This document shows, one piece after another, positions 1,756-28,991 of a stretch of 64,000 nt of DNA. The position numbers and the translations under genes were made by a program. How positions within the stretch are numbered: the first letter of the stretch is position 1; every line of letters starts with the position of its first letter. The DNA is from Octopus vulgaris (Eukaryota). The DNA is taken from contig OX597827.1 of assembly GCA_951406725.2 (NCBI GenBank), forward strand, positions 84,134,001 through 84,198,000. The letters run 5' to 3'. The notes beneath the pieces were generated by a model. The model was not told the origin of the DNA. It worked only from the letters and a program-made list of their open reading frames with translations, and ran no database searches.

Positions 1756-1769
1756 TATATATATATATG

Positions 1770-3057: not shown

Positions 3058-3181
3058 CATATGATTCAATTGCAACACCTCGAACCCCAGGGCCATAGTC
3101 TGAAAATGTGACGCTTACTTCCTGCCACTCATTGTTTTTATAAATTTTTCCAATTTCTCCAGTTGTGAATTGTTTCATGAT
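3058..3181 (-). CDS. Exon 10 (in window) of the repeat-malectin-FBA gene; FBA domain
   Basis: ttttcag|ATC...TAT G|gtaag. Encodes IMKQFTTGEIGKIYKNNEWQEVSVTFSDYGPGVRGVAIESYG, matching the FBA motif W.EVSH.FS.YGPGVR. Confidence 0.92.
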
Positions 3182-3674
3182 CTGAAAATATTGAAATATT
3201 TGACCTCAGAATTACAGGTACAGAATAGTAAGCCTAAAGTTGGCTTGCCCCATTAATTAGCCATTATGTAGTCACTTTATGTAGTCACCCTCAAATAATA
3301 TCTTAATAAAAAGACATGAGATGGTCACGGTTGAGCCTTTCATAAAAGGTTTCTAAAGCAAGCTTGACCTGTATTTGAATAACAACAGCAACAACAAGAA
3401 AGGAAATATTAATGTATGCCCAGAAGCATTGCATGAATAAAAGATAGAAAGGCAATGATGAGTTACAATTTAACTCCTGAAAAGGGAAAAGAAATGAGAG
3501 AACCTATTTTGGAAAGGTTACCTTGTCAGTTATACCTAAGGATGTTGACCAGTTTAGAAACACAGATATACAAAATTTCAATAAATTTTTGTTTAATCAG
3601 TCAAATTAACAAATTATGTGTTGCTCTTGAGTACATGTTGATAGTAAATAAGAAGATTTCAAAAAAGGACAAAC

Positions 3675-3755
3675 CGTTCCATTTTCATCCATTAAAGAAG
3701 CTGTCATGGAATAGAATCCTCCACCACACACTCCTTCTCGGTACCACTCAGAGAC
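3675..3755 (-). CDS. Exon 9; FBA domain
   Basis: caacag|GTC...ACG|gtttg, phase 0-0, 81 nt. Encodes VSEWYREGVCGGGFYSMTASLMDENGT (FBA VSEW....CG..Y....L.D pattern). Not in the ORF track. Confidence 0.88.
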
Positions 3756-4659
3756 CTGTTGTTAGGGATAATAACAGTGTAAATTATTTACAGAGACACT
3801 GAATCTTAAATTACAATCTCACATAAACACCAGAAATTCCATCCTATGGACTAAAAAATTGGGGCTTTTTTGCTGTCCAAGGGGTGGATTGTTAGGATCA
3901 TTAAGGGATTGGGCAATTCCTGTAGTTGGTTAAGGTTTTATCATATTAGATATTCATATCAGGCTTTCTGTTCAAGTTGATGTTTCGAGGCAATAATTAT
4001 TACAACCTTCTTTCTCTCTAGTGATTGTATACAAAATAAAAGTTTGAGTTTGGGATATCATTTTTATTTCATAGTTAATAATTGTTTCAATTCCAAGAGG
4101 ATTAATCTTGCATATTATTTGTAAACTTGTACATTATTAATGATCTAGTCATATACACAGTCTGTTTCCAATACATCGTTTTAATGAAACATTCTAAAAA
4201 AATAATTCCATGGATGCTGTGAAGATAAACTGCACAACATATATAACTTGATCATTAATTACATACAAGACTATAAAACATCATGCAAGATTAATCACCA
4301 CAGAATTGTTGAAACAATTGTAAACTATGAAATACAAAATAATCCTGCAAACTTCAATCTTCAATTTTTGTTTCTTATACTCTGTAATTTGTGGATTTTC
4401 TGCTTATTTGGAACTTTAGTTTTATAAAGGGATTTCCCCTTTGCAATTTCCAGATAGACACTTTCAGTAGAAATGCTTCCCAAGGAAAATGCCTGGATTA
4501 TCAGTTGACATAAAGTACCAGAAAAACTGCTGGACTTGACAAGTGATCAAATTCTTTTTAAGATGGTAGGGTCAATATGGCCATGACTGACAGCTAAAAG
4601 AATCCAAGTTAAATAAAAGAGAGAAAAGAAACAAAGAGGAGACATGCTGAAGTATTTAC

Positions 4660-4830
4660 CTGGATGTCAGGTGATGTATCTAAATAGTCAACACAGAAGA
4701 ATTCAGTGAGGTCTACTTCCTGTTGTTTGGTACATCTCATGTGGGACGTAATGAAAGCCCTTTTAGTGCCATAACCACTTTCATCTATTGTCCAGTCACC
4801 ATAGGCATTCCAGTGTACCATACTGTTTTG
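4660..4830 (-). CDS. Exon 8; FBA domain
   Basis: gccag|CAA...CAG|gtaaat, 171 nt. Encodes QNSMVHWNAYGDWTIDESGYGTKRAFITSHMRCTKQQEVDLTEFFCVDYLDTSPDIQ (FBA F.TS...C.K.Q.VDL...LD..PDI). Confidence 0.92.
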
Positions 4831-6568
4831 CTGGCAATATAATACTTACAGGATAATAACAATTTTGCCACAGTGTAGATCACATAATTAAGCAGAGGAT
4901 AATCAAAATTTTATTTCATGCTAAATTATATGGTAACCACTGGTTAAACCACATAGATTGTCTCCTATTGGTTCCCATCAGTTTTATAATGTATTAGAGC
5001 ATAATTATCTTTAGTTAAGAAATAAAGGTTACTGTTTTGTATCCAGTCTAGTACTATGCACATATCCAAAAATAAGCATAAACCACTTGATAACTACAGA
5101 GTTAGACAATGATTAAATACTGTTTTATATTTAGATGGCCAGCAGTTTAACTTAAGAAATGCAAATGGTGGGGAAAGGACTACAAAACAAAAGAGGTCAC
5201 ATATTCAGCACAGTGCCATGCAAGCACTCTGAACTTGTTGAACCCACAACATTCAGAATTGTTGCTACAACTGAGAAAGCTGATGATCTAAAAGAAAATG
5301 TAAAGAATAGGAGATAGAGTCTTCAACTTGTTTGCATATTTAATGACTGTTAAAATTAGGTCTTATATAACATATTTTCTATTTAAAAAATGGAGACAAC
5401 AGAGCTTCATGGTTCATCTTGTCTCACATACTACTCACCAAAACTGCTAGAGTAGTGTCTGAAAAGAGACACCACTGGCAACTAACTGAGACATTTTTGA
5501 TCACTGTTATCCTTGCTATTTTTTTTTTATACCTTTATCATTTACTTTGTAAACTAGCCATGGAGAACTGCTTGTTTTGTAATAACCAAACTCAATTTCT
5601 CTTTTCTGCATAAATATGCTCTCCTAAGGCAAGCTACTTACATTTCTTTAACACACACACACATAAACATTGATTTTGCAACTGAGTAGCAATGAACTTT
5701 TTTGGTGATTCATAAACAGACAATTTGATATTAATTACATATTTTTTGTTAGAGTGTGTAAATTTATCCTGCAGATATCATGTCCAAGTTTTACAAGTTA
5801 GTGAATGAACAAATTGCCAAATATATTTCATATCACTTTGACAGTCATTCATTGTAAAAATACATTTTATAATGTCAATAAGTGTGTATACAATTACAAA
5901 AGAATTCATCATCGGTTAGTCCACAAATGCCTTTGATTGGCCTCTTGCTCTCTTCCCCTTTACGCTTCTTGTTAGAATGGTTTAGGGTAGTGACTTGTGG
6001 CACATTGTCTGTAGACTTAATTCAAGTATCTATCTTATAGCCACTTGGACATTTGAGGTGAGGATCTTTTCCATACTTAGAACTGCCGCTTTGACATTAT
6101 ACACTGTTGCAATCATCTTCAAACAGCTGTTAATTCATTTCCAATTGAAAAAAGCTTTGCAATGGTGGAATACAAAAGAACTATTACAGCATTGTACTCA
6201 ATTTTGTTCCCACGAACACTGCCCCAAACTGCTAAAACTACTCTTAAAGAAATATATTTTTGGATTATATATGGACAGCTCAACCTTTTAAACACATTGA
6301 TTCTGACCACAAAGAAAGACAATAGGCATGTAGCTTACTTACAATTATAGAACAAGGAAAACACTGAATTATATCTCAAAAGACCTTACCAAGAAGACTT
6401 GGAGAAAATAGAGACAGCATCAAAAAGTGAAGAAAGATTTCAAAAGCTTTTGAGAAAAAGGGCTTTCATAAGTAGCTCTATGAAAATAGAACTTAGGACA
6501 AGTTTAATTGGGTTAATTCTGCCAACATATCTGGAGGGAAACCGATAGTTGTTATCAAACAAATGATT

Positions 6569-6631
6569 TGAAAGCAAGTAGTAAACATTGAAAGCAAGTA
6601 GTAAACATTGAAAGCAAGTAGTAAACATTGA
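6569..6631 (+). repeat. Perfect tandem repeat, 3 x 20 bp (TGAAAGCAAGTAGTAAACAT)
   Basis: Directly visible triplication. Confidence 0.9.
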
Positions 6632-7993
6632 TAAATTATTTAATAGGGTTGTTATTATGAAGAACTTTTTGGTTTCTGAGGCAGAAGTTTATGCAGCACA
6701 AAATTTTAAGTATGAGGAAAAGCGATAAAATTTGTTTTGCTTGTTTCAAAGAAAGACACATATTAGTAAAAAAAAGGTTTTGTTCTATAGTAGACTCATT
6801 TTCTTTTCTCGAATTTGTGCAATAGGTAAAGATTTCTGTAATAGATAAAGAGAGGTCTAAAGAGGTCATTATTGCAGAAGTTACTATCAAGGACTTTCTG
6901 ATTATTAACATCTTAAGCTTTCATAAATTTTAGAGAAAATTGAAATTGACAAAGAATTTATTGTAATATTTTGAGATGGTCATTTTTCTTGCCAAATAAA
7001 CATATGCAGTTTTCGTTTTTCACTTCAGATTTATCGTTGTTCTTATTTTAGGACATAAAATAAGAACAATTATAAATCTGAAGGGAAGAACTAATAAATA
7101 GTGTGTGTTTATTTTGCAAGGCAGAAGAAAAAGTGACTATCCAGAAATATTACAATATCTGTTTCAACACAAGATTTCACATCAGGAATCTTGCAAAACA
7201 AATATATGTGACAATGAACGTTTTAAGTGAAAAAGCTCTGATAATTGAATAGAATATTACTTGACAATAAGAACATGTCTAATTTGATTGACTTTTGAAT
7301 ACTACAATTCTACTTCATAATATTCTACATGCTTGTATTGTCCAGTAAACAATAGTTGCTTTGTACATATTTTTCCTTTCTGCCAACTTGGAAGAGGCTG
7401 CTTTGATATAAGTAGAAAATATGTAATTAAGTTAATATATTGGCAGTAACCCAAATCCACTTTAATACCCAACCCACACATTGTGGCTCATTAGAGCATG
7501 CATGATATTTCCATTGGTCACACTTATATACACAAATATAATACTGATATATACTCATCTAAGTACCAATGCATCCACATACATACCTACACATCCTCAA
7601 ATGCTTACACACATGTAAAACTTATACAGACATTCATATAAATATTTATATCCACATATCAAATGACCCAAGAAGGTATGCCTATATGGTTGCTCAAACT
7701 ATAAGAATTTACAACCAAATCCATCATATCACATCCTACTACCTTAAAGAAAAAGGATACATGGGCTAAAAGAAATCCTACAAACATTAACCGGGAAAAA
7801 ATATGAAATGGTGATTACAGGAGCATCTTTGGTCATGGGTCGAGTGGATCAGTCTGGTGACCTGAGTCTAGATAATGTCAAGTTTAATACTGATTACTAT
7901 ACTATATATATCATATGATGCTCTAATTATACTATATCTGAATCTAACTTGAGTCACTTTGAACAGAACTAGAGTGAATGACCAATCTCTTAC

Positions 7994-8293
7994 CTCTCCA
8001 CTTGCATTTTGAAGTAGATTCTGTGACCAACCAACAATTTTGACTTCCTTTTTCAGTAAGCTATGTAGAATTGGTTTAAAAGATTCTACCAAGTACGAAC
8101 TGTCTCGAAGCACCTGTTGTTTGTCTGGCAAGTGTTTCTTCATAAGAGTTGGGTTAAAAAGGACAAAAGCACAAAGAGCTGTATCTTTGGAACATATTCT
8201 CAAGTGGTGGTCAGTTATTGTTACATGTATGTCTGCTGTATGAGCATGACATCCAGGAGATATCTCATACTGTTGGTGAAACTGGGATTGAAC
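7994..8293 (-). CDS. Exon 7; end of the malectin-like region, linker, and start of the FBA domain
   Basis: atttcag|GTT...GAG|gtaag, 300 nt, phase 0-0. Ends NLLQNASGE, like the NLL.NP.GE motif that opens FBA domains. Confidence 0.88.
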
Positions 8294-8535
8294 CTGAAAT
8301 AACAAAACAAGATCAGCATTTTAGTGGGTTCTGCTTTCTCTGTCAGATCTCAGTCATTACACTGTCCAAGCTGGAGCATTGTTGTTTTGAAGAGTTTAAC
8401 TAAATATATCTATTCCAGTACGTTTTCTGGTACATTTTTAAAGTACATAAAGGAAATGTAATAATAAAGCAAAGGAACTTAACAATACAAGATATCTTAT
8501 GTTCAAATCACTACTCTTTCCATCACCCATCACCC

Positions 8536-8582
<47 letters not shown>

Positions 8583-8586
<4 letters not shown>

Positions 8587-8690
8587 CCTGCTTGCTTAGC
8601 CAGCGGGGTGGCGTCAATCGAAGGCTAAAACAATGTGAACGCATTGTGACCAGCGATGTGTAGCAACATTTGATGGTCTGGTTGGTCACG
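8583..8690 (+). mobile_element. 3' part of a SINE, same family as 27026-27333
   Basis: CTTAGCCAGCGGGGTGGCGTCA...GTGACCAGCGATGTGTAGCAACAT is nearly identical to 27226-27320. Confidence 0.75.
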
Positions 8691-9194
8691 AAAGAAAGAA
8701 TATATATATATATATACACACTTTATTCAAAGCAGCAGAAAATTCAACAAAGCATTTTTTACTTTTTGTCCTTTTGAAGTCAACAAAATATGCACCAGGG
8801 TCAATGTAATTAGCTGACCACCCCTGGTCTTGTGCAAAAATTTCAAACCATTCTTGTTCAACTATTTAACTAATCAACCAGTCAACTAATCGATTGTTTC
8901 ACTCGTCTTTTGATGAATTAATCAATCAGTTGGTTTGTTCTGAAACTACAAATGGCCTTTAGCAATGACAAGGCATTCTGGCTTCAGATCTCTTCAATAT
9001 ATTTTGATACATTCACCAGTATTACCAGGAGTTTGCTTCACAGCTGCATGTTATTCCATGTTCAATGTCAATGTGTGGCCAGTTCAACATTTATCTTCTC
9101 CCATAGGCTTGATCAACACCTCCCATTTGAGTTTTGTAATAGCAGAAACTGCATGGAAGCCTCTTGGAAGTGTGTGTATGTATATATAAATATA

Positions 9195-9612
9195 TGAAGA
9201 CATGGGATGAAGTACTGAAGAATGTCCTCAGGATGCTGAACCTTCCAGGCGAGATGACAAAGGACGAAGATGCCTTGTGAGATGACAAAGGACCTGGTAC
9301 CTTGCTGTATACAAGAAAACCCATACTCCACTGCAGAAGTGCTAAGACTGATTCTTCTGGTGGTGCCATGTAGAAGTGCTTGTGGAGTATCATGTAAAAG
9401 CATCCATGTGACCCCACATAAATGCATCTCTGTGGTGCCATGCAAAAACGCACAGCACACTCTCTAAAGTGGTTGGCATTGTAAAGGACATCCAGCTGTA
9501 GAAACCATACCAAATAATACTGGAGTCTCGTGCAGCACTCTGGCTTGTCAGCTTTGCTCAAACCATCCAACCCATCCCAGCATGGACAACAGACGTTAAA
9601 TGATGATGATAT
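9195..9612 (+). mobile_element. Degraded RTE 3' end
   Basis: GAAGACATGGGATGA..., GGTTGGCATT..CATCCAGCTGTAGAAA..., then GACGTTAAATGATGATGAT. Confidence 0.75.
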
Positions 9613-9639
9613 ATATATATATATATATACATAACAAAA

Positions 9640-10560
9640 TGATGGATGTGTGTCACTTCATCGCAGCTGTTTCCAGTGGATTTCTTTATTAGATTAAGGA
9701 GTACATTACATCATAACTAAAACAAATTACTTTCATCAGATAATACATAACATTTCAAAACAATATAAGAAGAGCACTTTAGCACAGTGGGACAGTTGAA
9801 CTTGATTCCAGCTGAAGCTGACTTGGAATGAGAGAAACAGCAAAGCTTGGATGGCATTAAGGGGACAATAGTGGACAGAGTGCTCAAAGGTTTTACAGCT
9901 ACAGGGCAGTTAGTGGGCATGTTGGTGGCAGGAGAGAGTAAAAGAGCTAAGTAGTCTATTTCACTCTGTAAGATAATATCTGGGTTAACAATAGATGTAT
10001 ATCTCACTACCATTCATTCTATGAGATTTCATTTTATGACAGCTTTATTACACTTGGACCCCAGTTGGGGATGGAATTAAGATAACAGGTATATACAGCG
10101 ATTAATAAGACTTTACCAAGAGCTTATTTAAAAGTGAATAGAAAATGAAGGAACTTAATTAGGGGTTCAGGGTTATAATTAGTGAGAGTGTTGACAATGA
10201 CAAGAGTGGGAGATAATATTAACTAAACGGTATTGGTGAGATTATATAAATTATGAAAATATCATTATTGAAGTAATACTAATTCATTATCTTCCACTCT
10301 CATCATTGTCACCACTCTCTAGTATAACCCTGACCTCTTAATGTCATCCAAGTTTTGCTGCTTCCTTCATTTCAAGTCAGCTTCAACAGGAATCAAGTTT
10401 GACTGTCCCACTATGGTAAAGTGCTCTTCTTACATTGTTTTTAAATGTTATGTATCACCTGATGAAAGTGGTTTTTAAAGTTATACGGTAAAGTACTCAT
10501 TAATCTATTAAAGAAACCCACTGGAAACAGCTGTATTGAAGTGACACATACCCACCGTTC
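9640..10560. mobile_element. Element with ~220-bp inverted terminal repeats carrying a hammerhead-like core (Penelope-like pseudo-LTR pair)
   Basis: 9640-9860 is the imperfect reverse complement of 10345-10560 (e.g. GTGTCACTTCA..CAGCTGTTTCCAGTGG vs CCACTGGAAACAGCTG..TGAAGTGACAC). Confidence 0.65.
10454..10540 (+). ncRNA. Hammerhead-like ribozyme relic with extended stem II
   Basis: CTGATGA at 10459, stem II AGTGG...CCACT, GAAA, palindromic stem III ACAGCTGT with a GUA site. Stem I is weak. Confidence 0.5.
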
Positions 10561-10983
10561 AGTTATATATTTATTTGTTCATAATACTCCTAACTGTAAT
10601 CCTGACCCATCCCATCGATATTCTATACCAAATAACATATGACTAATACAACATAAACTTTTGGATTAGCCCATAGGCTATTAAAATACTCACAAGGATT
10701 CAATTATTTGTGTACATAACCTGAATTTTTCACTGGATGTACTTCGGCACCCATGAGTTTTATTCAATTAAAGATGCTGTTTACCTGTTAATTCTGATCC
10801 TACATGTTGCCTATCATTTAAGTACCTCATTTCTTTGAATCATTCATATTGCGTGTATATATACATACATATATATATACCGGAGTAAACACATAAATGT
10901 GAAACAAGGTGGAAAAAAGAGTACTCAAATACCAGTGGTTGAGTAATATGCTATATTTAAAGCAGCAGAAAATTCAACAAAAC

Positions 10984-11021
10984 CTGTTACTCTGAGTTTC
11001 ACGTTCCCGTTCGTCGGACAG
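10984..11021 (-). ncRNA. Minimal type I hammerhead ribozyme (Penelope pLTR type)
   Basis: Minus strand reads CTGT-CCGACGA-ACG GGAA CGT-GAA-ACTC A GAGT-A-ACAG. All three stems pair, the cleavage triplet is GUA, and the core carries a U4C variant. Confidence 0.7.
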
Positions 11022-11154
11022 TTTTTGCTAGAATAGAACTGATATGTCAATTCTATCAAGACTAATATAAACGCTACACCTTTAAAAATAGACTTGTTTG
11101 ATTGGTCCTTTACAAATAACGGTCAATTTTCGAGCGATAAACAAAAAAAGCTCA

Positions 11155-11201
<47 letters not shown>

Positions 11202-11629
11202 TATAAAATCCGAGGAAAAAACCTTACATCGAATCTTTGGTTAAAATACATATTATCATTAATAAAGGAAATATAATTAATACATGGAAATTGAAATTAA
11301 AATGTTAAAATGCATTAAAATATTACACAACAGTACATACTCATACTAAACTATACATATATACATCAACATACACAGATAGATGCACGCAGACCACATA
11401 CATATACAGACATATAAATACAAAGCTAAAATATGCACACAAATGCATGTACACATATGAATACGCAATCTAGCTCGCATGCAAAATCACTGAATCCATA
11501 TAGACTATAAGCTAAATTCATGGATGGGGAAGGGGCGTTCTTATTTACAACATAAAGCTAAAGACATAAGTAAGGGAGGGAGAGGGGGGGCGTAAAGTTA
11601 CAGGAGCCTTTATTCTTCATAGAATTCCC

Positions 11630-12190
11630 ATTTATAGATGCAGGTTTATATAGGGATGACGGCCTTATAGCCACCCATAATTTAAATGGCCATGAATCAG
11701 ATAGACTTAGGAAGGACCTTATTGCTTTCTTCCAAAGGATGGGCTTACGGGTTACAATAGATACTAACCTGAAAAGTGTAGATTTTTTAGATGTAAATTT
11801 TGATATAAGGTCAGATAGATTTAAACCTTACCGTAAGCCCAATGACAAGCTATCATATATTAGCAAAGATTCGAACCATCCACCAGTTATCCTTAGGAAC
11901 TTAGTCAGCAATGTAGGTAGAAGAATATCGTCAATTTCTTCAGATGATGCAGCATTCCATAATGCTGCACCTTATTACGATAGCACATTAAGGAATAGTG
12001 GATTCTCTGAGAAGATCCAGTACAACCAGCTTAATGCTGGTAGTAATGCTGCGCGCAGAACTAGGACCAGGAAAGTTTTGTGGTTCAACCTGGCTTTCAA
12101 TTTGGCCGTAAAAACTAATATAGGTAAGGAATTCTTGAAATTAGTCTCTAAGCATTTTAAGCAGGACCATAAATTCTATAGAATATAGAA
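11630..12190 (+). mobile_element. Penelope-like element reverse transcriptase fragment
   Basis: GLYRDDGL just upstream of ORF 11739, then VDFLDV, KPYRKPN..YI...SNHPP and LWFN. These are typical PLE RT motifs. A pLTR-like segment with a hammerhead lies at 10875-11030. Confidence 0.88.
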
Positions 12191-12724
12191 GAACCCTTAA
12201 GATTAGCTATTCTTGTTGCAGGAATTTCGCCTCTTACATTAGCCAGCATAATAGGAATCTGATTGATATTAAGCATGGTGCCGATCCCCTTAAGAAATGC
12301 AATTGTAAAGATGAATCCTCCTGTGGATTTCCTAATCATTTATTAAAGTACATCATATGTTTACATACATATGCTAAGTAACTTTAGTAGAGTAACAATT
12401 CCACTAGCATCTATCTTGCAGAAATTGACCAATAGAATGTTTTAAGCTAAGTATTTGTTGCATTCAGTCTCAGCAGTGTGGGAGGTCTTGCAAGATTTAA
12501 AGGCATACTCTCTCTCTCTCTGACTATTTTATACTGAAAGGACATGAGATATGCAGGTAAAACTGTGATGGTGATCATGAGACAAAGTTTATAAACATGA
12601 CAGAAGGAGCATGACACTTATGGCCTTGCATCTTAAGTGGAGAGTAAATGACATTCATGATGAGAAAAAGGCAGGTTACAATATCAGGGGTGATAATAAT
12701 GATAATATTATAGCTATTTCTTAC

Positions 12725-12823
12725 CTTCTGTGAAATATTTTCTCCATTGACAGTTATCCGGCCACAATTGACTACTAGGCAGTGCAACCGAAGAATAAAG
12801 TTGCCATTAGAAACATCATCAAA
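12725..12823 (-). CDS. Exon 6; malectin-like domain
   Basis: cttcttcag|TTT...AAG|gtaag, 99 nt, phase 0-0. Encodes FDDVSNGNFILRLHCLVVNCGRITVNGENISQK (compare malectin G.Y.V.LHFAE...F.V.VNG). Confidence 0.8.
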
Positions 12824-13799
12824 CTGAAGAAGAAGATTAAAGCCACAACATCAACATTAATAATATTTGAGTGTCAAAATATAAGAGAATAGTTTACATC
12901 ACACTTCATTTTTTATTTAAAATACAATCACAATCATAAAGTATGCCATATATGCATGTATATGTATACTAAGAGAGTAAGACACAAAGAAGATTATAAA
13001 AAGGAGAAAATGCACAATTCCTTTGGTATTGTAATTAATCAAATTATTACCTATCAGTTTCATTTCTAAAAAAGGATAAGCATCTTACTGTGCATATGTA
13101 ATGACTTGACTGCTAGCCTTCTATTAAAGTGTGCCACACATTCATCACAATGATTATCATATTTTAGAAGTGAAACTTGTAGGCAATAAAGTCTGACTTC
13201 AAAACCCTGAACCTGATGGAGAAGATGACAAACGCCTGTGATCTCTGGTGATATCAGATTCTCTAAAAGAGCTGCCTTCACCAGTGAAGCTGAGTTCTGG
13301 AAGTATTATTTATTACATTTTTTCACCTGTGTTACTGTGACCCATTTTCTTCTCCCTCCCACTGGCTCTTGCAGACTACTAACCTACTCTCTTGTCCTCC
13401 TGCAGACAACTGTATCATCTTTACTTCTCCTACTGCTCACCCTTCTCTCTCTCTCTCTCCTGACTCATGGATCTTTGCTCATCTACCCGTCAACCCTATC
13501 TATTCTGGCAGTCTGCCTCCCCATCCCCTCATTCTCCTTTCTGTGCAATCATACAAACAGATTTTTCAACTCACCTCATGCCTTGTGGAGCAGTCTAGAA
13601 ATTTCATTGTCATTATCTATTTCTTGCAGCTTAAAACAGTTCATTTTCTCTTTCTCTCTCCTTCCCCTAATAGATATGAGTAACAATGCAGATCCTTTAC
13701 AAAAACTTGTACTGCCTCCTCCCACTTCTCATATTTCAATTTCCTTGTCCACTATCATGAAACTGACTCTCCACCTCCAGGCTTTGTAGTCCTGTAAAC

Positions 13800-14005
13800 T
13801 GCATGGCAACCTCAAAATAGTACAGGTGGCACATAAAAGGCACCCAGTCTATGTTGTAAAGTGGTTGGCCTTAGTAAGGGCATTCAGCCATAGAAACCAT
13901 GCCCAAACAAAAAACACTGGTACATAATGTAGTCCTTGGACACATTAGATCCTATCAAACTGTCCAACTTGTGCCAACATGGAACTTGGACATTAGATTA
14001 TGATG
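13800..14005 (+). mobile_element. Degraded RTE 3' UTR copy
   Basis: GGTGGCACATAAAAGGCACC...GTGGTTGGC..AAGGGCATTCAGC...GGACATTAGATTATGATG. Confidence 0.7.
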
Positions 14006-14771
14006 ACAAAAGGAATTATGCAGTTACTTTTCCTGTATCTAAAAAGTGATATGGAATATTTTTAACTGCTTGTTATAGAGTTTGACATCTAGATAACAAT
14101 TATTTTCACGATAAAAAAAAACAACATTATATACTCAACATTATACACATAGATGTGCATGTTTGTATTTAATTAAGGTTATTTTAAAGCATGTTAAAGA
14201 ATAACAACAGGACATTTATTGACTGTGTATTCAATACTGAGAGTAAAGCTAAATTTACATCAAAATTTGAGTATTTGGAATTAAAAATTATGCCATATGG
14301 CTAATTCAACTGCCTAGTGAAACTTTAAGGCCCCTAAACTTTGTACAATACTTTGTTCTAACCTGCCATCTTAACTGTATTTACTTTTGCAGTTATTTGA
14401 GAGATTTATCCCTGACTTTCTGTCCAACTTTTAAGGCCTTCTTCTTTGTTTGACCTATCTCCTTGAATTCCCTTAATAATTGACAGCCCTCTCCTCATAA
14501 AATCAATCACTCAATTACATTTCCTTAATTTCAGACACAGGAACAATGAATGAGATCAATGAACTGATTGCTTAAATTTGGGCTATGTGTACTATATATG
14601 CATGTTAATGCCACAGAAAAGCACCATTTACACTTGTGAAGCAGTTGGCATTAGGAAGGACAGCCTGATGTTGGTTGTATGGCAAAGCAGACATTGTAGG
14701 TCTGCATTGCTCTGTTGAAAAGTATCGAGTAATCCTTTAGTTTACTGTCAAATTGTTTCTATATATATACA

Positions 14772-14964
14772 CAGGGTGGGCCAAAAGTAATGAAAAGGTA
14801 TGAAATTTTGATTACTTTCCTTGTGATTTAGACATGAAAAATCACAGGTAAATCACAGGTAAATTGCATATATTGTAAATGATGCTAAGCTATTGGAAAT
14901 TTAAAACAAAAAATTAAGAATTTATTAAATATTGAAACATCTTTGTGACTTTTAGACCATACTG
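14772..14964. mobile_element. Short Tc1/mariner-like MITE
   Basis: Imperfect TIRs CAGGGTGGGCCAAAAGT ... ACTTTTAGACCATACTG. Confidence 0.5.
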
Positions 14965-15013
14965 CATAAACTGATATATATGCACACACACATATATATA
15001 TCAAACTTATAGA

Positions 15014-15051
<38 letters not shown>

Positions 15052-15059
15052 ATGCATAA

Positions 15060-15562
15060 GCATTGGGTACAAGAGGCATCTCAAATAAGAGAGATGTTTG
15101 CGCTGGTATGGTCATGTGATGCCTATGGATGAGGACAGCTGCATAAAAGAAGTGCTGATTTCTAACTGTGGAGGGAACTTGTGGAAGAGGTAGGCCCAGG
15201 AAGACATGGAACGAGGTGGTGAAGCATGATTTTTGAACATGGGGTCTCACAGAAGTGATGAGAAGCGATCATGACCTTTGGCAATTTTCTATGCTAGAGA
15301 AGACTTGTCAAGTCAAGTGAAATTGTAGTTGTGGCCAGAGCCAGTGACATATAACTGTATCCATGCTGGTGACACATAAAAGCACCCATGCCAGTAACAC
15401 AGAGGCACCCACTACACTCTCAAATTGGTCATCCAGCTGTAGAAACCAAGCCAAAATAAGACTGGAGCCTGGTGCAGCTCTCTGGTTTACCAGTTCAGTC
15501 AAGCAGTCTAACCCATGCTAGCATGGAAAGCAGACATTAAATTATGATGATAATGATGATGA
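15060..15562 (+). mobile_element. RTE 3' fragment (RT C-terminus, 3' UTR and GAT tail)
   Basis: TGCGCTGGTATGGTCATGTG and GGAAGAGGTAGGCCCAGGAAGACATGG are homologous to 1005-1120. Ends in (GAT)n. Confidence 0.85.
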
Positions 15563-15585
15563 TATATATATACACACACACATAC

Positions 15586-15728
15586 TGTATATATGACATC
15601 TTGTTCATCAGCAGCCTCAACATCAGGGCTTCGCGATGTAAGGTACAGAAAGTTATCTTCAGTTCCTGTGATTTGTTGTGTAACTGAAACATTTGTTTTG
15701 ATACCTCCAAGACATTTCCATCGGCTTC
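15586..15728 (-). CDS. Exon 5; malectin-like domain
   Basis: ttttcag|GA...ACA|gtatgt, phase 1-0. Encodes SRWKCLGGIKTNVSVTQQITGTEDNFLYLTSRSPDVEAADEQDVIYT (compare malectin I.GT.D..LYQT.R). Confidence 0.85.
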
Positions 15729-19150: not shown

Positions 19151-19354
19151 TATATCCCTAACACCACCTTAAATGCTTAAACAACAGTTAGAAATAATAG
19201 CTCACTGTCCTTCAAACTATATTATACTGTTCAAATAAAGAAAGTATACTTTAGATAATGTGACCCAAGATATATCTGACTATAAGTGAGAATGGTCATA
19301 GATCTTAGTTTTGTTGAAGGAGAGGTAATTTGAGACTAAACAACATTGACTTAC

Positions 19355-19516
19355 CGAATATATAGGAATAAGAGTAGTTGGCAAACTGAGAGTGTTCGCT
19401 TACATAAACAATATTGTCAACCAGTGATTGGTAAGAAGGTCCTCCACAGTTAATGGCAACAACCACTCCAACTGGTTGTTTGATCAACTGACATGGTGAT
19501 CCCTGAAGTTCAATTT
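19355..19516 (-). CDS. Exon 4; start of the malectin-like domain
   Basis: ctctgtag|AA...TTC G|gtaagt, phase 1-1. Encodes IELQGSPCQLIKQPVGVVVAINCGGPSYQSLVDNIVYVSE; AINCGG is the malectin N-terminal signature. Confidence 0.88.
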
Positions 19517-20199
19517 CTACAGAGAAAAGAAATAAATTTTCCAGTAAACATTCCTCAGTATAATTTCAATAATGTCATTCTGTGTGTATTTTTAATAATG
19601 TCTATCTTGCTAAAACTTTCTATGTCCCCTCCAGTAAATATCCAATAATGTTGCATTATATACCAAGGGAATTCATTAATTATCCACTCTAAACTTTTAT
19701 AAATCAAAACTAGTGATGATTTTTTTCTAAGAGGGTGTCACCTTTGTAACCAAAGTGATTTAAATGTCGCCGACATTTCAAAACAACTTTATTTGTACAA
19801 ATCCGTGATTTAATTTGGATCCCATTTTTTCCAACCTTAACTGAAGATAAATCGTTTTTGGATTTGGTTTGCAAGATTCTTTATATGAGTTCGTGTGTTG
19901 AAGCATATTATGTTGTGTCTGGGGAGAGTCATTCTCTTTTAGTACCTTATTATTCAACACACTCACCAGTAAAATTTCCACTTATTTCGTCTTTTTATTT
20001 TCCTAAAATTTTCGTTGCGTCTTGCAACCTTTTCAATAGTTTTGACTCTGTCCGTTATTTACACTGCGTTCCTTTTTGTTTGTTTGTGCCCATGTGTGTG
20101 GGTCAGTGTGTGTGTGCCTATACATGTATACATGTACGTATGTATGTGTGTGTGTGTGTGTGTTTGCATGTGTATGTATGTATATATGTGTATGCATGC

Positions 20200-20230
<31 letters not shown>

Positions 20231-20763
20231 TGTGTGTGCAACTGTATGTACGTATCCTGCATATTTATGTGCTTGCCTGTCCGTGTTTGTGTATTTTCTG
20301 TGTATGTGTTTGTATATGTATGCACCTCTGTCTCCTTGTGTGTGCATATCTGTGTGTGTGTATGTTATGCAACTATGTACTATGTTTGTATGTATAGATG
20401 TGCATCTTTATATGTGTGGATCCGTGTCTCCATATGTGTCTGTTCTTGTAACCAATGTACCTATCCGTCTGTATGTTGATCTGTTTATTTACATATCTAA
20501 ATGCTTACATACAGAAATAAAAAATATAAAAAATAAGAAATAAAACAGTTTACACAGGTAGAGTAGAATAGTTAGTGGATTGTTAGGTAGATAAATTTAT
20601 GTATGTGTGTGTGTGTGTATGCCCCCCCTTTTTTATCATCATAATTTTTTTTCTTATATTTTCTTATATTTTTTATTTTTTATTTCTTATTTTTTATATT
20701 TTTTATTTTTTATTTCTGTATGTGAATTCAAACTGACAGAAAAATAGATATGAATAGGCCAGA

Positions 20764-21060
20764 TTGAAAGACTTCAGACAAAAATCATGCCTCCTCATTG
20801 ATATGACTGTCCCAATCAACATAAATGTATCTGTCAAGATCTACCAAAAACTGAGCAACTATAAAGATCTTGAAATAGAAATTGGCAAAATGTGGAACCT
20901 GAAGACTAAAACAATACTTGTCATATGTGCTCTAGGAATGATAGCAAAAGGGGCTGATTGCTACCTAGCTCAGATACCAGGAAACCCCAAAATGGCAGAA
21001 ATTCAAAAGATAGGGCTCATGGGAACTACCCATATCCTACGTAAAATACTTTCTATGTAA
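20764..21060 (+). mobile_element. Restriction-like endonuclease C-terminus of an R4/Dong-type non-LTR element (fragment)
   Basis: CLLIDMTVP..NV..K...KL..YKDLEIEI.KMW.LKT....I.ALG is the typical RLE tail. Confidence 0.75.
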
Positions 21061-21254
21061 TCTCAAGTTTTAAAACAAACTTATATTTTTCTTATGGTTT
21101 CTTAAACATTCTCTAGAACAACACTATGTACAAAACCAAATATATGGCACCCTAGGCATTAACACCAACATGAACTTCCAATTTTTTGTCTCTTGAGGTC
21201 TCTGGATGAGACTTGGAGCCAACTTGAACAAATGTAAAGCAAAAGTCAAACATA

Positions 21255-21317
21255 GAATAATAATGATGATGATAATGATAATAATAATGATGATAATAAT
21301 AATAATAATAATAATAA

Positions 21318-21348
<31 letters not shown>

Positions 21349-21365
21349 AAAAACAACAACAACAT
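21255..21365 (+). repeat. Compound (AAT/GAT)(AAG)(AAC) microsatellite
   Basis: Directly visible. It accounts for the spurious poly-F/L tail of ORF 21246..22490. Confidence 0.9.
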
Positions 21366-21379
21366 TTGAAGAAACTTAC

Positions 21380-22444
21380 TTTGTGTTTGGTCAGTGATGA
21401 GATTAGCAAAAACTTGCACAAGATTCAGACCAAGCAGGATTTCATTTTCTGCCCACTGTCTGTTAAAGATCCAATTTGAGCCAGTTGCTACCAACTCTTC
21501 TGTTTGTATCTGTGCTACAATCAAACTATTCACTGAAATATATATGTCACATCTTCTGTTCAGAATGCCGTTGATTCTATCTTCTCCAATCTCCACACAT
21601 CCCATAAACAAACCCTCATCACTACCACCAGTAACAACACAAATATCTTTTGATTGGAGTTCAGTCAAATTTGATGTCTCTTCTTCGATATTTGTTATCA
21701 GAGCAAATCTGGCTGGACCTGGTGGACCACACACCTGAAGAAATTTAGTGACTTTATCCACTTCAAATTTCCATTCACTGCGATGAATGCAACCCTCTCC
21801 AAAACTCTCAGACAAAAGTAACACCTGAGTGGTTCCTTTGGACAATGTTATTAAATATGCAGATGCTGAAGTTGCATCTTGCTGGCCACAAGAATGAGAA
21901 CAGAGTGCAATTAAGGATGCATGAGGGAGACAGTATGAAAATTCAATCAGTTTGGAATGCAAAGAGCCATCATGGTTTGATACAAAAATGGTTTTTGCTT
22001 TCTTCTTATTGTTGTTAAGATTTTCTCGGTTATGATATAAACTATAAACAGAGTGTGCACAGCCTTTCACCAACAATTGACCACTTGAATTAACAGAAAA
22101 CTCCCACTGATCTTCACCTTTAATAAATGACTTCTGAAATGTATTTCCTTTGTGCCCACTGCGGATGAGGTAACATGCACTGACAACTGTGTTTTCCTGA
22201 AGGGCACTGCAGATAATGAGGCTGCAGCCACTTCCATGAATCTTATCATAACAACCATTTACATTGAGTGGGCAATTAGTATATTCCTCACAATCATCAC
22301 TTCCTTTAAACACCAAGCCATGTCCACAATGTCCGTTGACCTTCCAGTTTGACATTAGCATCACATGATTTGAGCCAGAAAAGCAGTCAACAATGAGTTC
22401 TCCATTCTCATTAGTTATAAAACTACTAGCTGGGATTAAATGAC
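21380..22444 (-). CDS. Exon 3 (1065 nt); tandem beta-rich repeats
   Basis: aatacag|GT...CAA A|gtaagt, phase 1-1, open for about 355 codons. Internal repeats SL...S......SA.YLI.SG..GN...W.F.V...G.L.V. Confidence 0.92.
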
Positions 22445-23239
22445 CTGTATTAGAGGTAAAAAAAAAAGTATATGATACAATAATTGGCAATAATGATTAA
22501 TTAATAGCTGTGATGACAACTACAACAATAACGAAGTAAAACAACATGATGACATCTTGGCCCTCAAGCTCTTTCACCATGTTTCACATCATTTTTTGAA
22601 CCTAGCACATATATACTTCTTTGCATTTCTGAAATTACCTTTATTGTAAACTACTTTCACTCTGATTCAAAAGTAGAGTCAAGTAACCAAAATACTCTAC
22701 ATTGACTACAATTGTGCCAAGTTGTTTATAGGTCACACAAAAGCCCAAATTTATACCCAGTATGCTGAATTGAACAATCACTGAGCTAACATTTTTGTTA
22801 ATAGTTTTAACCCAACACTGTAATTCCCTGCCACCATCAACTCCTTAGACATTTTGACCGTGTCAACTCCATCCATTGCATTCAATCTCACTTTATTATA
22901 AAACAACACATTTCCTTCCTCATAATTTCTTCAGCCTTCTATTGAGCATAATCTTCTACTGAACTCAGACCACTCAATCAACTGCCTACTCATTCTACAA
23001 TTCATCAATTTCTAACCCACAACCCAAACGTCAGCATCTATCTCTCTTACAAAAACTTTGAACCATTATAGTCTTTATGGCAATTAAACTCATTCAGTTC
23101 TTCTACAGATAAATTTGTGCCAAAACTTCACTATATTCCTTTTGTAATTATGTGGTTAATCATATTAAATAATAATATGTTTGTTAATTTATTAATTATT
23201 CAAACAATGTAATGTTAATTGTGATAATTACATAAATAA

Positions 23240-25350
23240 CTAGCTGACATATCCAGTAATTTCCGAAAAAGTGGGGCTTATCCCTTGGTTCAGTTCACTT
23301 AATTGTTTTGCTAATCCAATAACATAAATACAAAGTATGTAGCCCTTAAAATGGTTTTTATGCACTTACAGAGAATATTGAACTGTCTCACATAGGATCT
23401 TATTTTTAGGAATTCCTAATAAGTTATGAATAGGCAAATTGTGAAGTCAGTTATGTAATAACATGAAATTAGTTACCTGATAGTAAGAATTCAAATAAAG
23501 TAATCCCGTAAAGGTCTTTAATGTGTTCCCAGGGTATACAGAACTTAGGGGGAAATACCAATAAAGTATGTATACCAAAATCATGAAGCATGTTATGTAA
23601 TAACAGGCTAATCAGATATGAGATAATAACAATTCAAAGTAAATAACTCTGAAAAGGGCTTTTGTGCATTCCCAGAGAATATAACCCTTAGGGGTGCTAG
23701 TGTTGAAATAGATTTACAACGAATGTAGAAACAGACTGACATTTAGTTTTACAGTAGACATACAAATAAATTTGCATAAAATAATACGTAGATTATCAAT
23801 ACATTTACAACACTTACAAATATTATAGTTAAATAATAAATACTTGATGATTTGGTGAATCTTATTAAGTTTGCAGAGCTTCTTGATAAACAACATATTT
23901 GATCTTTCCTTGTGGGGCATAAATAAACAAATGATTAGGATTGCCGACTCTTGAGCATCTCACATAAAGTTGGCCATGGGGGAAAACTGGTTTGACAAGG
24001 TTCAGACCTACCACATTCAAGGACTGCCCCTGGGCCTTGTTAATGCTCATTGCAATGCTCAGTTTCAATGGGAATTGTACTGGAAAGGCATATCCAAGGG
24101 AATAAGTAGAATTCTAGGAATGAATGCAGGCTCACCGCTTGCTTTACCAGTCAAAGACTGTTGACATCATCTTCTTTATGCCAACAGTCATGTGCCATGG
24201 CAAAACTTTGGTGGATTGAGGTTTCGAAGCAGCATAATTAGTGCCCCAATGTTGAGGTGCAAGTTGTGAGATGGGAGGCCAGGTGGTGTTAGACTATTCA
24301 AAAGTTTAACTAGATAATTCACAGCTTCATCAATGTTGAGTACTGCATCAATGGAATTGTAGATGTGATACTCACCTGGCAACTGTTCCAGAAATTTAAA
24401 GCTCAAATCATCAACTGCCACAGTTTTTGGAGCTAAAATGGCACGGGTTTTCAGTCAGTTATGGTCTGTAAACTGATTCCTCAGGTTAAGAAACACCTTA
24501 TTCATTAGTTCCTTTAAATCAGATACCATGTGTCCAAAAGGCAAGCTTACCCAGCCATCCTTTTCACCAACTGAAGTGCCATTACCAAAGTGCAATAGTT
24601 GCTTTGAAAAGATTCTGTCTGCATCATCACCACTGAGCTGCACTCTCATGTTGGTTGTGAGTCTCATCTTTCGCACACTGCTCCATAGGTAGGGACGACT
24701 TTATGCTGGCATTTACTTCATCAGCTCTTGTCCCCTTTGGAACCACAGGAACGGTTTGCCTAAAGTCTCCGGCAAGCAAGATTGTGGAACCTCCCATGAG
24801 CCTGGTGTTCTGTTTCAGATCCTGAAGGGCCATGTCAAGAGCTTCAAAGGAAACTTTATGTCTCAAGGGAAATTTTGCTGCTTTATCCCAGATGCTGAAC
24901 CTGCAATCACTCAGAACTTTGCCTTTTATAGAACCACAACTGCATCGTCATTCATGGTATATTCGTGAATAAGTCACTAACCAAAGTAAGTGGATCTATT
25001 GTTTAGGAAAATACTATTTACTTGTTAAAGGGTTGTAGTTGATAAATTGCGAAAATAACTGTAGCAGTTCAAATACTAAGAAATAAACATAGCTTGGTTT
25101 CTACCAAATAATATAAGAAAAGGAATGGATTATTTCCCTTGGCTGTTAAAATAAAATACTTTAGTTATATATAAGGATCCTTTCCAGAGGCTGTGGCCAT
25201 CCAATTATAGATTTTTATTAAACTTCAATGAGTTTAGTAACAAACTGGATGTTACTTTAGAATGTTTGTAAAGTTTCACGAAAATTTACTAATGGATGTA
25301 TATGGCAACTTTGACACAAACAGACAACTTGCTTTTATATATGTATAAGA
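23240..25350 (-). mobile_element. Helitron (internally deleted) with Pif1 helicase pseudogene
   Basis: Minus-strand 5' end A|TCTTATACATATATAAAA at 25350 and 3' end CTAG|T at 23240, with an imperfect hairpin. Internal motifs LLAGDFRQ, LTTNMR, MLLRNL, AMSINKAQGQSL and HGQLYV.SRV lie at 23865-24900. Confidence 0.88.
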
Positions 25351-25354
25351 TAAC

Positions 25355-26430
25355 CTTAATTATGTACAGTTCTATATTTAAGAGATGAGGAATTATATAC
25401 ATTCGACAGATATTTGTCCTCATCTTGTTTTTTCAGCTGATATACCCTCCAGCCTTTTTCAGGTGTCTTGGGGAAATTTCAAACCTGGGTTCTCATTCCA
25501 AAGGTAATTTTTGAGGTTATTATTATTATTATTATTATTGTTGTTATTGCTTAACAGATCATTATTTCTTTCTATGAAGAAATGATCAAGCTCAATAATG
25601 ATCTGTTAAGCAACAACTACTCCAAAAGTATATTATCCATTCTAATTATGAAGAAGAGAGAGGATGAGGCCAATAAACTGTCCACAGTCTGTCTACCCTA
25701 TGTGAATGGCCTCTCTGAAAAGATACAAAAGATATGTGGCCCATATGACATCAGGACAGTATTCAAGAGTAATACAGCACTTTGCAAATATCTCCTTCGA
25801 GTAAAACCACCAACAGAAGAGAATATGATTAAGAACTGCATGTACTCCATCCCATGCAGCTGTGGTAGGTTATACAAAGGCGGAACATGCTGCCCCCTCA
25901 AAATAGGGGTAGACGAACATCGCAAAGCTGTGACATGAGGAGATATTGATAAATCGGGTATAGCTGATCATGTATGGGAAAATGGAGACCACCTCCCCCT
26001 TTGGGATGAAGTTAAAATAATAGACAGAGAACACCACTGGAAAATATGAAAGCTAAAAGAAGCAGCACATATGCTAGGACACAACAACCTCCTAAGCAGA
26101 CTGAGTGCAGATATGAGCAGCATATGAGAACCAGTATTAAGGAAGGATTGAAAAATATTACATTTATAAACCCTAAAATTCATTCCATAATTGCCCACAG
26201 CCTATGGCATAGTGGTTAAAAGCATGGGCTACTAACCTCAAGATTTCGAGTTTGATTCCAAGAAGTGACCTGAACAATAATAATAATAGTAATAATAACA
26301 TGAATGAGAATGCAGGTTTGAAATTTCCCAAGACACCTGAAGAAGGCTGGAGGATATATCAGCTGAAACGTGTTAACAACAAACAAGATGAGGACAAATA
26401 TCCATCGAATGTAAGTAATGTACTTAATTA
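25355..26430 (+). mobile_element. Penelope-like element fragment with GIY-YIG endonuclease, flanked by inverted pseudo-LTRs
   Basis: LPYV.GLSEKI...VFK, then YSIPCSCG..Y.G.T....R..EH (GIY-YIG). 25360-25520 is the reverse complement of 26290-26430. Confidence 0.85.
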
Positions 26431-26466
26431 TGTAGTTGATAATTATAGTGTTTGAAGTAAACTTAC

Positions 26467-26694
26467 CTTGATAACTTTGAACTATTGAGACTACTGCAAA
26501 ATGATTGCAATTGAAGCCAGAACGCAGCAGAAACATCTGTGCTGTGGTGTTGGACCCTTCTGAGCCATAAGCATTTGATATGAAGACAAGAGAGCAACAG
26601 CCACCATAATGGCTATTAATATTGAACTTCAATGGAGCATAGCAACGTATGGGCCATTTGCTTTGGGCTGATGACCACAGGCAGCTATATTGTA
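26467..26694 (-). CDS. Exon 2; first half of repeat unit 1
   Basis: ctttag|TA...CAA G|gtaagt, phase 1-1. Encodes QYSCLWSSAQSKWPIRCYAPLKFNINSHYGGCCSLVFISNAYGSEGSNTTAQMFLLRSGFNCNHFAVVSIVQSYQG, which is homologous to the repeats in exon 3. Confidence 0.88.
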
Positions 26695-26934
26695 CTAAAG
26701 ATAGATAAAGAATAAATTACTAGGGGATGCCATCTACAAGAAAAACTATCAAGTTATAAGTATAAAACACCATTAGTTATGCAGTAAGGAAAATATGATG
26801 TTAACTATCATCTAATGATTAGAGAATCACTAATTAAGTGTACAATAGTCTATAAGAGTAGGCATGAAAAATGGTACATTTTACTTGACTGAAATAAATT
26901 GCTCAAAGGCATCCACTCTTATTTTCCAGACATG

Positions 26935-27014
<80 letters not shown>

Positions 27015-27025
27015 GTGTGTGTGTG

Positions 27026-27333
27026 GAGGCGCAATGGCCCAGTGGTTAGGGCAGCAGACTCGCGGTCGGAGGATCGCCGTTTCGATCCCCAGACCGGGCG
27101 TTGTGTGTGTTTATTGAGTGAAAACACCTAAAGCTCCACAAGGCTCTGGCAGGGGGTGGTGGCGATCCCTGCTGTACCCTTTTGCCACAACTTTCTCTCA
27201 CTCTTTCTTCTGCTTGGCCTTCTCACTTAGCCAGCGGGGTGGCGTCATTTGAAGGCTAGAACAATGTGAAGTGTATTGTGACCAGCGATGTGTAGCAACA
27301 TCTGATAGCCTGGTCGGTCACGGTGATCACGGT
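27026..27333 (+). mobile_element. tRNA-derived SINE
   Basis: A-box TGGCCCAGTGG, B-box-like GTTTCGATCCC and a tRNA-like head. The 3' part is repeated at 8583. Confidence 0.8.
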
Positions 27334-27549
27334 AATATATATGTATATACATACAGACATACACACATTATCCAGTGTGTCCTGCTTTGTTTAAGATGGT
27401 AAAATATGATTTGTGAGAGATTGATTTGGCTGCAATTTCTAGCAGGTTAAGAATTGCATCGTTAGGCACATATTTTATAGGGGTCTTCTTCTTTTCACGA
27501 AGTGCATGCATCTAACACTGAGGAGCACCCATTTCGGCATTACATGAAA

Positions 27550-27865
27550 ATCCCCAGTGCCTGTGCCACAGACATATAGACACCAGTGTTGGTGCCATGT
27601 AGATAAGCACTCGTGCTGATGCCACATAAAAAGCACTTGTATTGGTACCATGTAATTAAGCATTTATGCCAGTGTCACATAGCAAGTACCCATAACAGTG
27701 CACCCTGTAAAAAGCACCCCATAAAGTGCTTGACATTAGGAAGGGCATCCAGCCATAGAAACCATACAAAAACAGTGTGAAGCTCTCTAGCTAGCCAGCA
27801 CCTGTCCAACCCTCCAATCCATATCAGCATGCAATATAGGCATTAAATGATTACCATGATGATGG
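27550..27865 (+). mobile_element. Degraded RTE 3' UTR copy
   Basis: CACATAAAAGCAC units, ATTAGGAAGGGCATCCAGCCATAGAAA, and a terminal GATGATG. Confidence 0.65.
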
Positions 27866-28810
27866 TCTATAATCAAAGGGATTCCTGTGGTGATTATCTT
27901 ATCTTTTATTCATTCATAGTGTATCTAGGACTACACTATCTAATATATTTGACATTATGATTATTGTTGAGGCCAGTTCCAATCCAGTGGACCTTATGAG
28001 CCAATAGATTAAGTTCCATTTTTATTCCAATAGTATATCAAAGACAACATTATCTAATGTCTAATATTGTAATTAGTATTGGGTGTTGTAATTGTTGTTG
28101 TTATTTAATCTTGCTTAACCCTGACACAGCCAAGCTGTGATCTAAGAGGTTCCTGCCTTATTTTTTAAAATTATATTTTGATGAAAGATATTTTGTAAAC
28201 ATTTCACAACCTCTGTTAAAGTACAGAGCACATGCAACTTTCTGTCTCTGTCAGATACTCAGGTAATTACAGAACATCAACAGTTTATTTCATCTGGTTT
28301 TAGAAGATGTAATGATGGCTAAATGTGCTCTGTAATGCAAACAGGTAACATAGCAACTAATAAATACTGGGTTCTTATCTTATCTGTGATACTGCTGTTC
28401 TTATCTCTGCCTCAAATAATTGTTTTTAATGTTAAAATATTCTGAAGTTGTAAATTGCTTAGTGCTTTGACTGTGGGAAGTACTTATGACAGATGATCAT
28501 GGACAATAAGGAAGGAGGTCAGGTCACAAAATGCTAGGTCACACTAATCAGATGATGTGTCATCTGGTGTTATTTAGCCGTGTGTCAGCTCTGACTGAGC
28601 AAATATTTGATCAGAGTCATTCCAGCCATGAATGTTTCTAAGTCAGTAGTAACCTTCAATTGCATTGTCCAATATGTCTTTTCCTTTTCTGTCTGTGTTT
28701 TAAATTTTATTAGTCAAACTCTAAATTCATATATTTATCATCTCTAATATTACATTAAAATCTTAGACATTGATTCATTATTTTTGATTACCCAAGACAT
28801 TTCTACTTAC

Positions 28811-28991
28811 TGTTTTGCATTTGGTTAAATTCCATCTTAGAATTTTCTGGAAAAATGACCTTTGATGTTGACAAAATTTTCTTTTCTGGCTGATTAAAAT
28901 TTTCTGCAATATTCAGAATATCTCCAGAAAGGGAGTCTGTAGAATGGGGAGAATCTAAAGGTTTTGTTCTTACATCAACAGCCAATGGATC
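28811..28991 (-). CDS. Exon 1 (most 5' exon found); low-complexity linker
   Basis: ctactacag|GAT...AAC A|gtaagt, phase 0-1, in frame with exon 2. Encodes DPLAVDVRTKPLDSPHSTDSLSGDIL... It starts at an acceptor, so more exons lie upstream. Confidence 0.72.

Follow-up and report, generated by a model that had tools for sequence, protein, structure and literature searches.

The window analysed here, a 64,000-nucleotide stretch of Octopus vulgaris contig OX597827.1, carries on its minus strand ten exons (positions 3058 to 28991) of a gene that an initial annotation described as joining a malectin-like domain to an FBA lectin domain behind novel repeats. Every exon is bounded by AG and GT splice sites with agreeing phases, and the spliced length of 2,554 nt gives 851 codons with zero stops in frame 0, versus 44 and 72 in the other frames. 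Translation of the spliced exons gives a peptide that needs no gaps in alignment with Octopus sinensis XP_036364943.1 (798/799 residues identical) or Octopus bimaculoides XP_052828708.1 (95% identity over 851 residues), and its exon 3 part agrees at every residue with the deposited O. vulgaris protein CAI9733595.1; splicing and homologue alignment together confirm the predicted gene structure. Judged by sequence comparison, the ten exons encode the N-terminal half of a conserved, NLR-like invertebrate STAND NTPase of about 1,900 residues, and the stand-alone multi-lectin protein originally envisaged gives way to a DUF4062(NIR)-NACHT-TPR protein. The exons and domains in the window are as follows.

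28811..28991, minus strand: exon, the first in the window, encoding a poorly conserved linker (splice sites, homologue alignment)
26467..26694, minus strand: exon, start of repeat 1 (splice sites, homologue alignment)
21380..22444, minus strand: exon of 1,065 nt, end of repeat 1, repeats 2 and 3, and most of a ~95-residue domain
22347..26632, minus strand: repeat 1, intron-spanning, homologous by profile to a phage tail-fibre/spike C-terminal domain (53.8 bits)
22023..22283, minus strand: repeat 2 (37.3 bits)
21690..21944, minus strand: repeat 3 (11.2 bits, control maximum 4.2)
19491..21647, minus strand: conserved ~95-residue domain ending in GSP, intron-spanning (no Pfam match)
19355..19516, minus strand: exon, start of the malectin-like domain (AINCGG)
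15586..15728, minus strand: exon, malectin-like domain
12725..12823, minus strand: exon, malectin-like domain
7994..8293, minus strand: exon, end of the malectin-like domain (to 8153), linker, start of the FBA domain (from 8026)
4660..4830, minus strand: exon, FBA domain, including the equivalent of Fbs1 F177 (His here)
3675..3755, minus strand: exon, FBA domain
3058..3181, minus strand: exon, FBA domain, ending in a GT donor; the end of FBA, DUF4062/NIR, NACHT and the TPRs lie past position 1

The deposited model CAI9733595.1 omits four of the ten exons, including 26467..26694, and begins (MDIDAE) in an 18-nt exon at 44092-44109 (minus strand), within an unrelated open reading frame (ORF) of 107 residues; this start exon is probably a gene-prediction artefact. 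Neither end of the gene lies within the window: exon 10 runs up to a GT donor, positions 1-3057 yielded no additional exon of the gene, and no MGCS-type first exon, as found in O. bimaculoides, was detected in the window. About 1,000-1,070 more residues are encoded past the left edge, and the window holds the N-terminal ~45% of the protein.

The homologues are about 1,800-2,130 residues in length, with full-length members in cephalopods, bivalves, Lineus, echinoderms and amphioxus, and Pfam and profile searches give their domain order in one continuous frame: three repeats, the ~95-residue domain, the malectin-like domain, FBA, DUF4062/NIR, NACHT and TPRs. The Pfam scan covered 13 animal proteins, and whole homologues were required, single exons giving only weak FBA matches. 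Specifically, the part of O. sinensis XP_036364943.1 encoded past the window matches DUF4062 (47.6 bits, cut-off 24.7), directly followed by NACHT (32 bits, cut-off 26.7), and its C-terminal repeats match TPR_12 (102 bits). Of 25 family proteins, 22 have Walker A and B motifs, and the other three are incomplete models. The RefSeq models and three Logan proteins (1,952, 2,000 and 1,874 residues on contigs of 6,023, 6,430 and 5,944 nt) suggest that the two halves belong to one transcript, because the contigs exceed the ORFs by just 164-427 nt and leave no room for introns; these contigs are presumably spliced transcripts. Some deposited models, in O. bimaculoides, Mytilus and Capitella, are split or incomplete.

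A profile of the repeats and the following domain, run against 1.84 billion proteins, matched 131, the strong matches being family members or fragments thereof. Named members come from cephalopods, bivalves, Lineus, Capitella, Branchiostoma, Patiria, Anneissia and sea urchins. A search for the architecture in other animals found it in molluscs, an annelid, a nemertean, echinoderms, amphioxus and Trichoplax, whose 1,070-residue model holds the N-terminal half only. No vertebrate or ecdysozoan orthologue occurs among the named matches, an absence that is not established, since only 20 of the 131 were looked up and most of those 20 are nameless. Many genomic ORFs of 380-470 residues in the database (P0022-P0040) cover the three repeats along with the domain that follows and stop close to the boundary between octopus exons 3 and 4, which suggests that this region is one large exon in other animals.

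DUF4062 is described, in the accessible parts of two preprints, as a TIR-like, oligomerisation-dependent NADase, renamed NIR, of antiphage systems, including Avs2 (NIR-STAND-TPR), and of human TEP1 (bioRxiv 10.64898/2026.05.01.722283; 10.64898/2026.09.04.749371). The NIR domain of the family matches the TEP1 structure 11gz with E-values of 2e-16 to 1e-22, and comparison with eel TEP1 gives 23% identity over 505 residues. A single numbering offset sets TEP1 residues R908, R954, R976 and E1008 each on the correct residue type. In particular, the catalytic glutamate E1008 falls on the Glu of an SVTxLE motif found in 21/25 proteins; the models of the other four do not cover that region. The position of R908 is Lys or Arg in 18/25 and that of R976 is Arg in 19/25; alanine substitution at either lowers TEP1 activity, as reported in the accessible text (10.64898/2026.05.01.722283).

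The placement of DUF4062 directly before NACHT, followed by a helical region and C-terminal repeats, is reminiscent of both TEP1 and NPHP3. The family has the catalytic-position Glu in common with TEP1, and the TPRs and a Met-Gly start in common with NPHP3. It differs from TEP1 in carrying an array of ~850 residues in place of TROVE-vWA and TPRs in place of WD40, and from NPHP3 in that all NPHP3-specific Pfam models stay below their cut-offs (NPHP3_N 19.9/24.8, NPHP3_hel 18.3/27.9, TPR_NPHP3 99.9/100), so that the automatic label 'NPHP3' is unsupported as a statement of orthology. Bacterial Avs2 with a NIR effector has the same core order and, according to the accessible part of the source, depletes NAD+ upon ligand sensing (10.64898/2026.09.04.749371). 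Avs proteins carry neither an N-terminal lectin-type array nor the lipid anchor predicted for the family, and the Avs C-terminus senses phage terminase.

The three repeats, each of ~90 residues, stand N-terminal to the malectin-like domain. Profile comparison identifies them as homologous to an unnamed domain of ~90 residues that stands C-terminally in phage tail fibres and spikes. From the 48 weakest matches of the profile search (P0102-P0149), 35 were chosen by eye as proteins other than family fragments, and all 35 hold a single copy of the domain, with the matched stretch at or near the C-terminus; distances measured to the C-terminus are biased in this direction, the model itself deriving from such ends. 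A PHROG scan of nine single-copy proteins matched tail fibre or tail spike families in the upstream parts of seven, several single-copy proteins bear a pectate-lyase beta-helix, and the domain forms the end of the annotated tail fibre gp50 of Roseobacter phage CRP-345. In IMG/VR, the domain lies ≤22 residues from the ORF end in 8/8 loci, and four of these loci are stand-alone ORFs of ~100 residues. Direct comparison of the repeats with the phage domain by hhalign gives 98.9% (E 3.5e-17). Furthermore, a model of the stand-alone domain finds exactly three copies in each of 19/19 family proteins above the control maximum of 4.2 bits, which was set by 19 reversed and 190 shuffled sequences. The repeats described earlier as novel match no Pfam family and have this phage domain as a homologue.

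The phage tail-end domain itself had no match in Pfam, PHROG, PDB or GTDB at the sensitivities used, and viral contigs yielded no form with three repeats. In a quick tree, repeats 1, 2 and 3 each mostly cluster across protostomes and deuterostomes, and the triplication is therefore old. Trees of 88-90 columns do not settle the direction of transfer; the animal repeats as a single clade were neither rejected (p-AU 0.64, three long rows excluded) nor demonstrated. The stand-alone ORFs in viral contigs L002, L003, L005 and L008 are 96-110 residues long, and the one in L005 sits amid other short ORFs resembling tail-fibre tip modules. Three other candidates were set aside: a Sortilin/BNR propeller for the repeat region (ESM Atlas clusters under 0.9, rejected and kept as a lead only), three viral hypothetical clusters for the phage domain (ESM Atlas, 0.83-0.87, a lead only), and a Pfam Gp10_D3 match (E 0.049, in 1/8 only). 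As for the conserved ~95-residue domain after the repeats, an immunoglobulin-like fold is a guess.

Tail spikes are trimers, and their ends bind host polymers. It is conceivable, if quite unlikely, that an early animal took over a phage receptor-binding tip domain, triplicated it as a single-chain mimic of the trimeric tip, and joined it together with two lectin-type domains to a NIR NADase switch; such a protein would detect bacteria through a phage recognition module and answer by NAD+ depletion. A precedent for a phage-type domain in an animal protein is the tailspike chaperone domain of MYRF, as described in the accessible text (PMC3742443), from which the octopus repeats differ in being another domain, in having no Pfam match, and in standing as three tandem copies in an NLR-like protein.

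The presence of the malectin-like and FBA domains in one chain, as first recognised, holds. Malectin (PF11721, CBM57-type) exceeds its cut-off of 23 in 8/13 animal proteins (24.0 bits in the O. sinensis model), and a malectin-like profile from seven proteins matched malectin chains exclusively in the PDB (four matches, best E 1.8e-4). FBA (PF04300) scores 96-105 bits in complete octopus models and matches Fbs1 structures with an E-value of 2e-29. Of the residues listed for the diglucose site of malectin in the accessible text, Y67, Y89, Y116, F117 and D186 (PMC7783096), Y89, Y116 and F117 align to non-aromatic positions in the family, while Y67 and D186 lie beyond the aligned stretch. Binding by Fbs1 requires F177, Y279 and W280 (PMC4603797, accessible part). 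The Y279/W280 equivalents are an aromatic residue and Trp in 17/25 family proteins, and the F177 equivalent is His, Tyr or Phe across the family and His in octopus. The likeness to Fbs1/FBXO2, Fbs2/FBXO6 and Fbs3/FBXO27 thus lies in an FBA domain that keeps the Y279/W280 equivalents in most members; the difference lies in the F177 position, in Arg at the W280 position of O. vulgaris and O. sinensis, and in the F-box, for which no model matched in any family protein scanned, hence no SCF ligase is expected. Hydropathy gave no transmembrane segment (maximum 19-residue value 1.46) and a signal peptide was likewise not found, in line with the original observation that F-box and transmembrane segment are missing.

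Twelve of the 25 family proteins have a Met-Gly start, all 12 as MGxxxS, which we take to be a myristoylation consensus, and eight of them have Cys3. The malectin-like domain is homologous to malectin in sequence, but a signal peptide, a transmembrane anchor and Y89, Y116 and F117 are all missing, and with MGxxxS starts in the homologues an endoplasmic-reticulum malectin role is unlikely. The apparent puzzle of two lectin folds from opposite compartments dissolves accordingly. Two precedents give the leading readings of the predicted anchor, membrane rupture and cilia: myristoylated Fbs3/FBXO27 senses glycans on ruptured lysosomes (PMC6389600), and myristoylated NPHP3 is an UNC119 cargo that reaches cilia through UNC119B and is needed there (PMC8246649), both as stated in the accessible parts of these papers.

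The window contains other elements as well. Two related remnants of long interspersed nuclear element (LINE) reverse transcriptases with a PHD-like finger lie at 2-1201 (plus strand) and 31551-32366 (minus strand; RVT_1 E 5e-19 and 7e-8). A long LINE reverse-transcriptase ORF at 39490-41859 (minus strand, RVT_1 E 1e-30) is broken by the sole N gap of the window (41707-41806), and fragments related to it lie near 37200-38500 and 61900-62830. Intron 2 contains a PIF1-like helicase fragment at 24627-24947 (minus strand, E 1.5e-16), likely a Helitron remnant. The ORFs at 11574-12188 and 25555-25938 (both plus strand) resemble, by eye, Penelope/GIY-YIG retroelement pieces and have no Pfam match. 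Several (AT)n-rich microsatellite fields of 350-960 bp, with GC content as low as 14%, occupy 32800-39400, and Rfam gave 0 matches.

We tentatively propose, with somewhat less than even confidence, that the protein is a cytosolic, membrane-anchored, glycan-responsive, NLR-like NADase. For its anchor, ligand, activation and output we infer the following course. The protein would be held on the cytosolic face of a membrane by predicted myristoylation of Gly2 and palmitoylation of Cys3, where its N-terminal array could meet glycans foreign to the cytosol, either exposed by membrane rupture or borne by microbes. Glycan binding is best supported for FBA, whose candidate ligand, by analogy with the myristoylated Fbs3/FBXO27, is the N-glycan core displayed by endosomes or phagosomes that have ruptured; microbial surface polymers are candidate ligands of the repeats. 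Ligand would induce oligomerisation of NACHT and clustering of the NIR domains, and clustered NIR would hydrolyse NAD+, with NAD+ depletion or ADP-ribose release as the output. In the earlier guess at immunity or quality control, the NLR-like core supports the immune-sensor half, while the full-length NIR-NACHT-TPR proteins disfavour a quality-control lectin.

Several observations weigh against this proposal. Human NWD1, NWD2 and NPHP3 were NADase-inactive in the conditions of both preprints, in their accessible parts, with TEP1 alone active (10.64898/2026.05.01.722283; 10.64898/2026.09.04.749371), and in octopus Lys occupies the positions of R908 and R976 alike. All three testable malectin diglucose residues are changed. 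O. vulgaris and O. sinensis carry Tyr-Arg in FBA, with Arg replacing the essential W280, and five sea-urchin proteins and Trichoplax are without the Tyr-Trp motif; in the sea urchins (P0052, P0171-P0174) FBA has decayed below Pfam detection and the Met-Gly start is missing, with NIR, NACHT and TPR conserved. FBXO44 retains the sugar residues yet binds no sugar, according to the accessible text (PMC4603797). Thirteen of the 25 models have no Met-Gly start. The named matches resemble one slowly evolving gene per species (38-57% identity between phyla), a pattern that differs from that of expanding immune receptors. Finally, the N-terminal array may localise the protein and not trigger it, because the sensor is C-terminal in known Avs and NLR proteins.

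This last point leads to a rather unlikely alternative, an active NIR-STAND-TPR NADase in which the TPRs sense and the N-terminal array only docks, like TROVE-vWA before NIR in TEP1, with glycans being no trigger. Avs proteins do sense through C-terminal repeats and TEP1 does have extra domains N-terminal to NIR, as the accessible parts of the preprints describe (10.64898/2026.05.01.722283; 10.64898/2026.09.04.749371), and the decay of sugar sites in octopus (Trp to Arg), in sea urchins and in the malectin-like domain, next to a conserved NIR, NACHT and TPR, would fit; retention of the FBA sugar residues in 17/25 proteins across molluscs, an annelid, a nemertean, a starfish, a crinoid and amphioxus argues against it. 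Unlikely, if far from negligible, is an NPHP3-like myristoylated ciliary protein that would take the UNC119/ARL3 route into cilia, with an inactive NIR scaffold and an array that binds ciliary partners. NPHP3 has the same DUF4062-NACHT-helical-TPR core and gives sub-threshold TPR_NPHP3, NPHP3_hel and NPHP3_N matches; it is the UNC119 cargo needed in cilia (PMC8246649) and is without NADase activity in the accessible text (10.64898/2026.05.01.722283); and the named family members, from aquatic invertebrates, are seemingly single-copy. Against these stand the best NPHP3-specific score, still short of its cut-off, and the conservation across phyla of the catalytic-position Glu and the active-site motifs.

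A stand-alone multi-lectin for glycoprotein quality control, reading diglucosylated and high-mannose N-glycans, is very improbable. Both lectin-type domains are real, and models from O. bimaculoides (922 residues), Capitella (994), Trichoplax (1,070) and Mytilus (1,117) end after FBA. However, the Capitella and Mytilus models reach into DUF4062 before stopping, full-length proteins of 1,870-2,130 residues exist, some on transcript-sized contigs, and malectin Y89, Y116 and F117, a signal peptide, a transmembrane segment and an F-box are all missing.

Although unstudied, the gene already appears as a prediction in public annotation. The view that its architecture is undescribed stands, with no describing paper found in a search that left subscription papers mostly outside and to which preprint supplementary tables, which may list it, did not contribute. 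Specifically, the accessible parts of PMC6321704, PMC9334734 and PMC11890989 contain no description of the architecture, the words 'malectin' and 'FBA' are both absent from the placozoan and Aplysia immunome papers, and the published mention of DDB_G0287407 names a syntenic neighbour only.

The 2026 preprints make NIR NADase common to antiphage systems and human TEP1, and leave what activates eukaryotic NIR-STAND proteins as the question. In the glycan-responsive NADase proposed here, candidate ligand-binding modules lie in the same chain, and FBA has a known ligand class, the N-glycan core; activation is therefore directly testable. Should NIR prove inactive, the family would still represent a conserved and unstudied gene whose domains have an unusual history. 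The repeats define an unnamed domain common to phage tail ends and an animal protein, and the protein that carries them may be an ancient candidate cytosolic sensor of molluscs, echinoderms and amphioxus.

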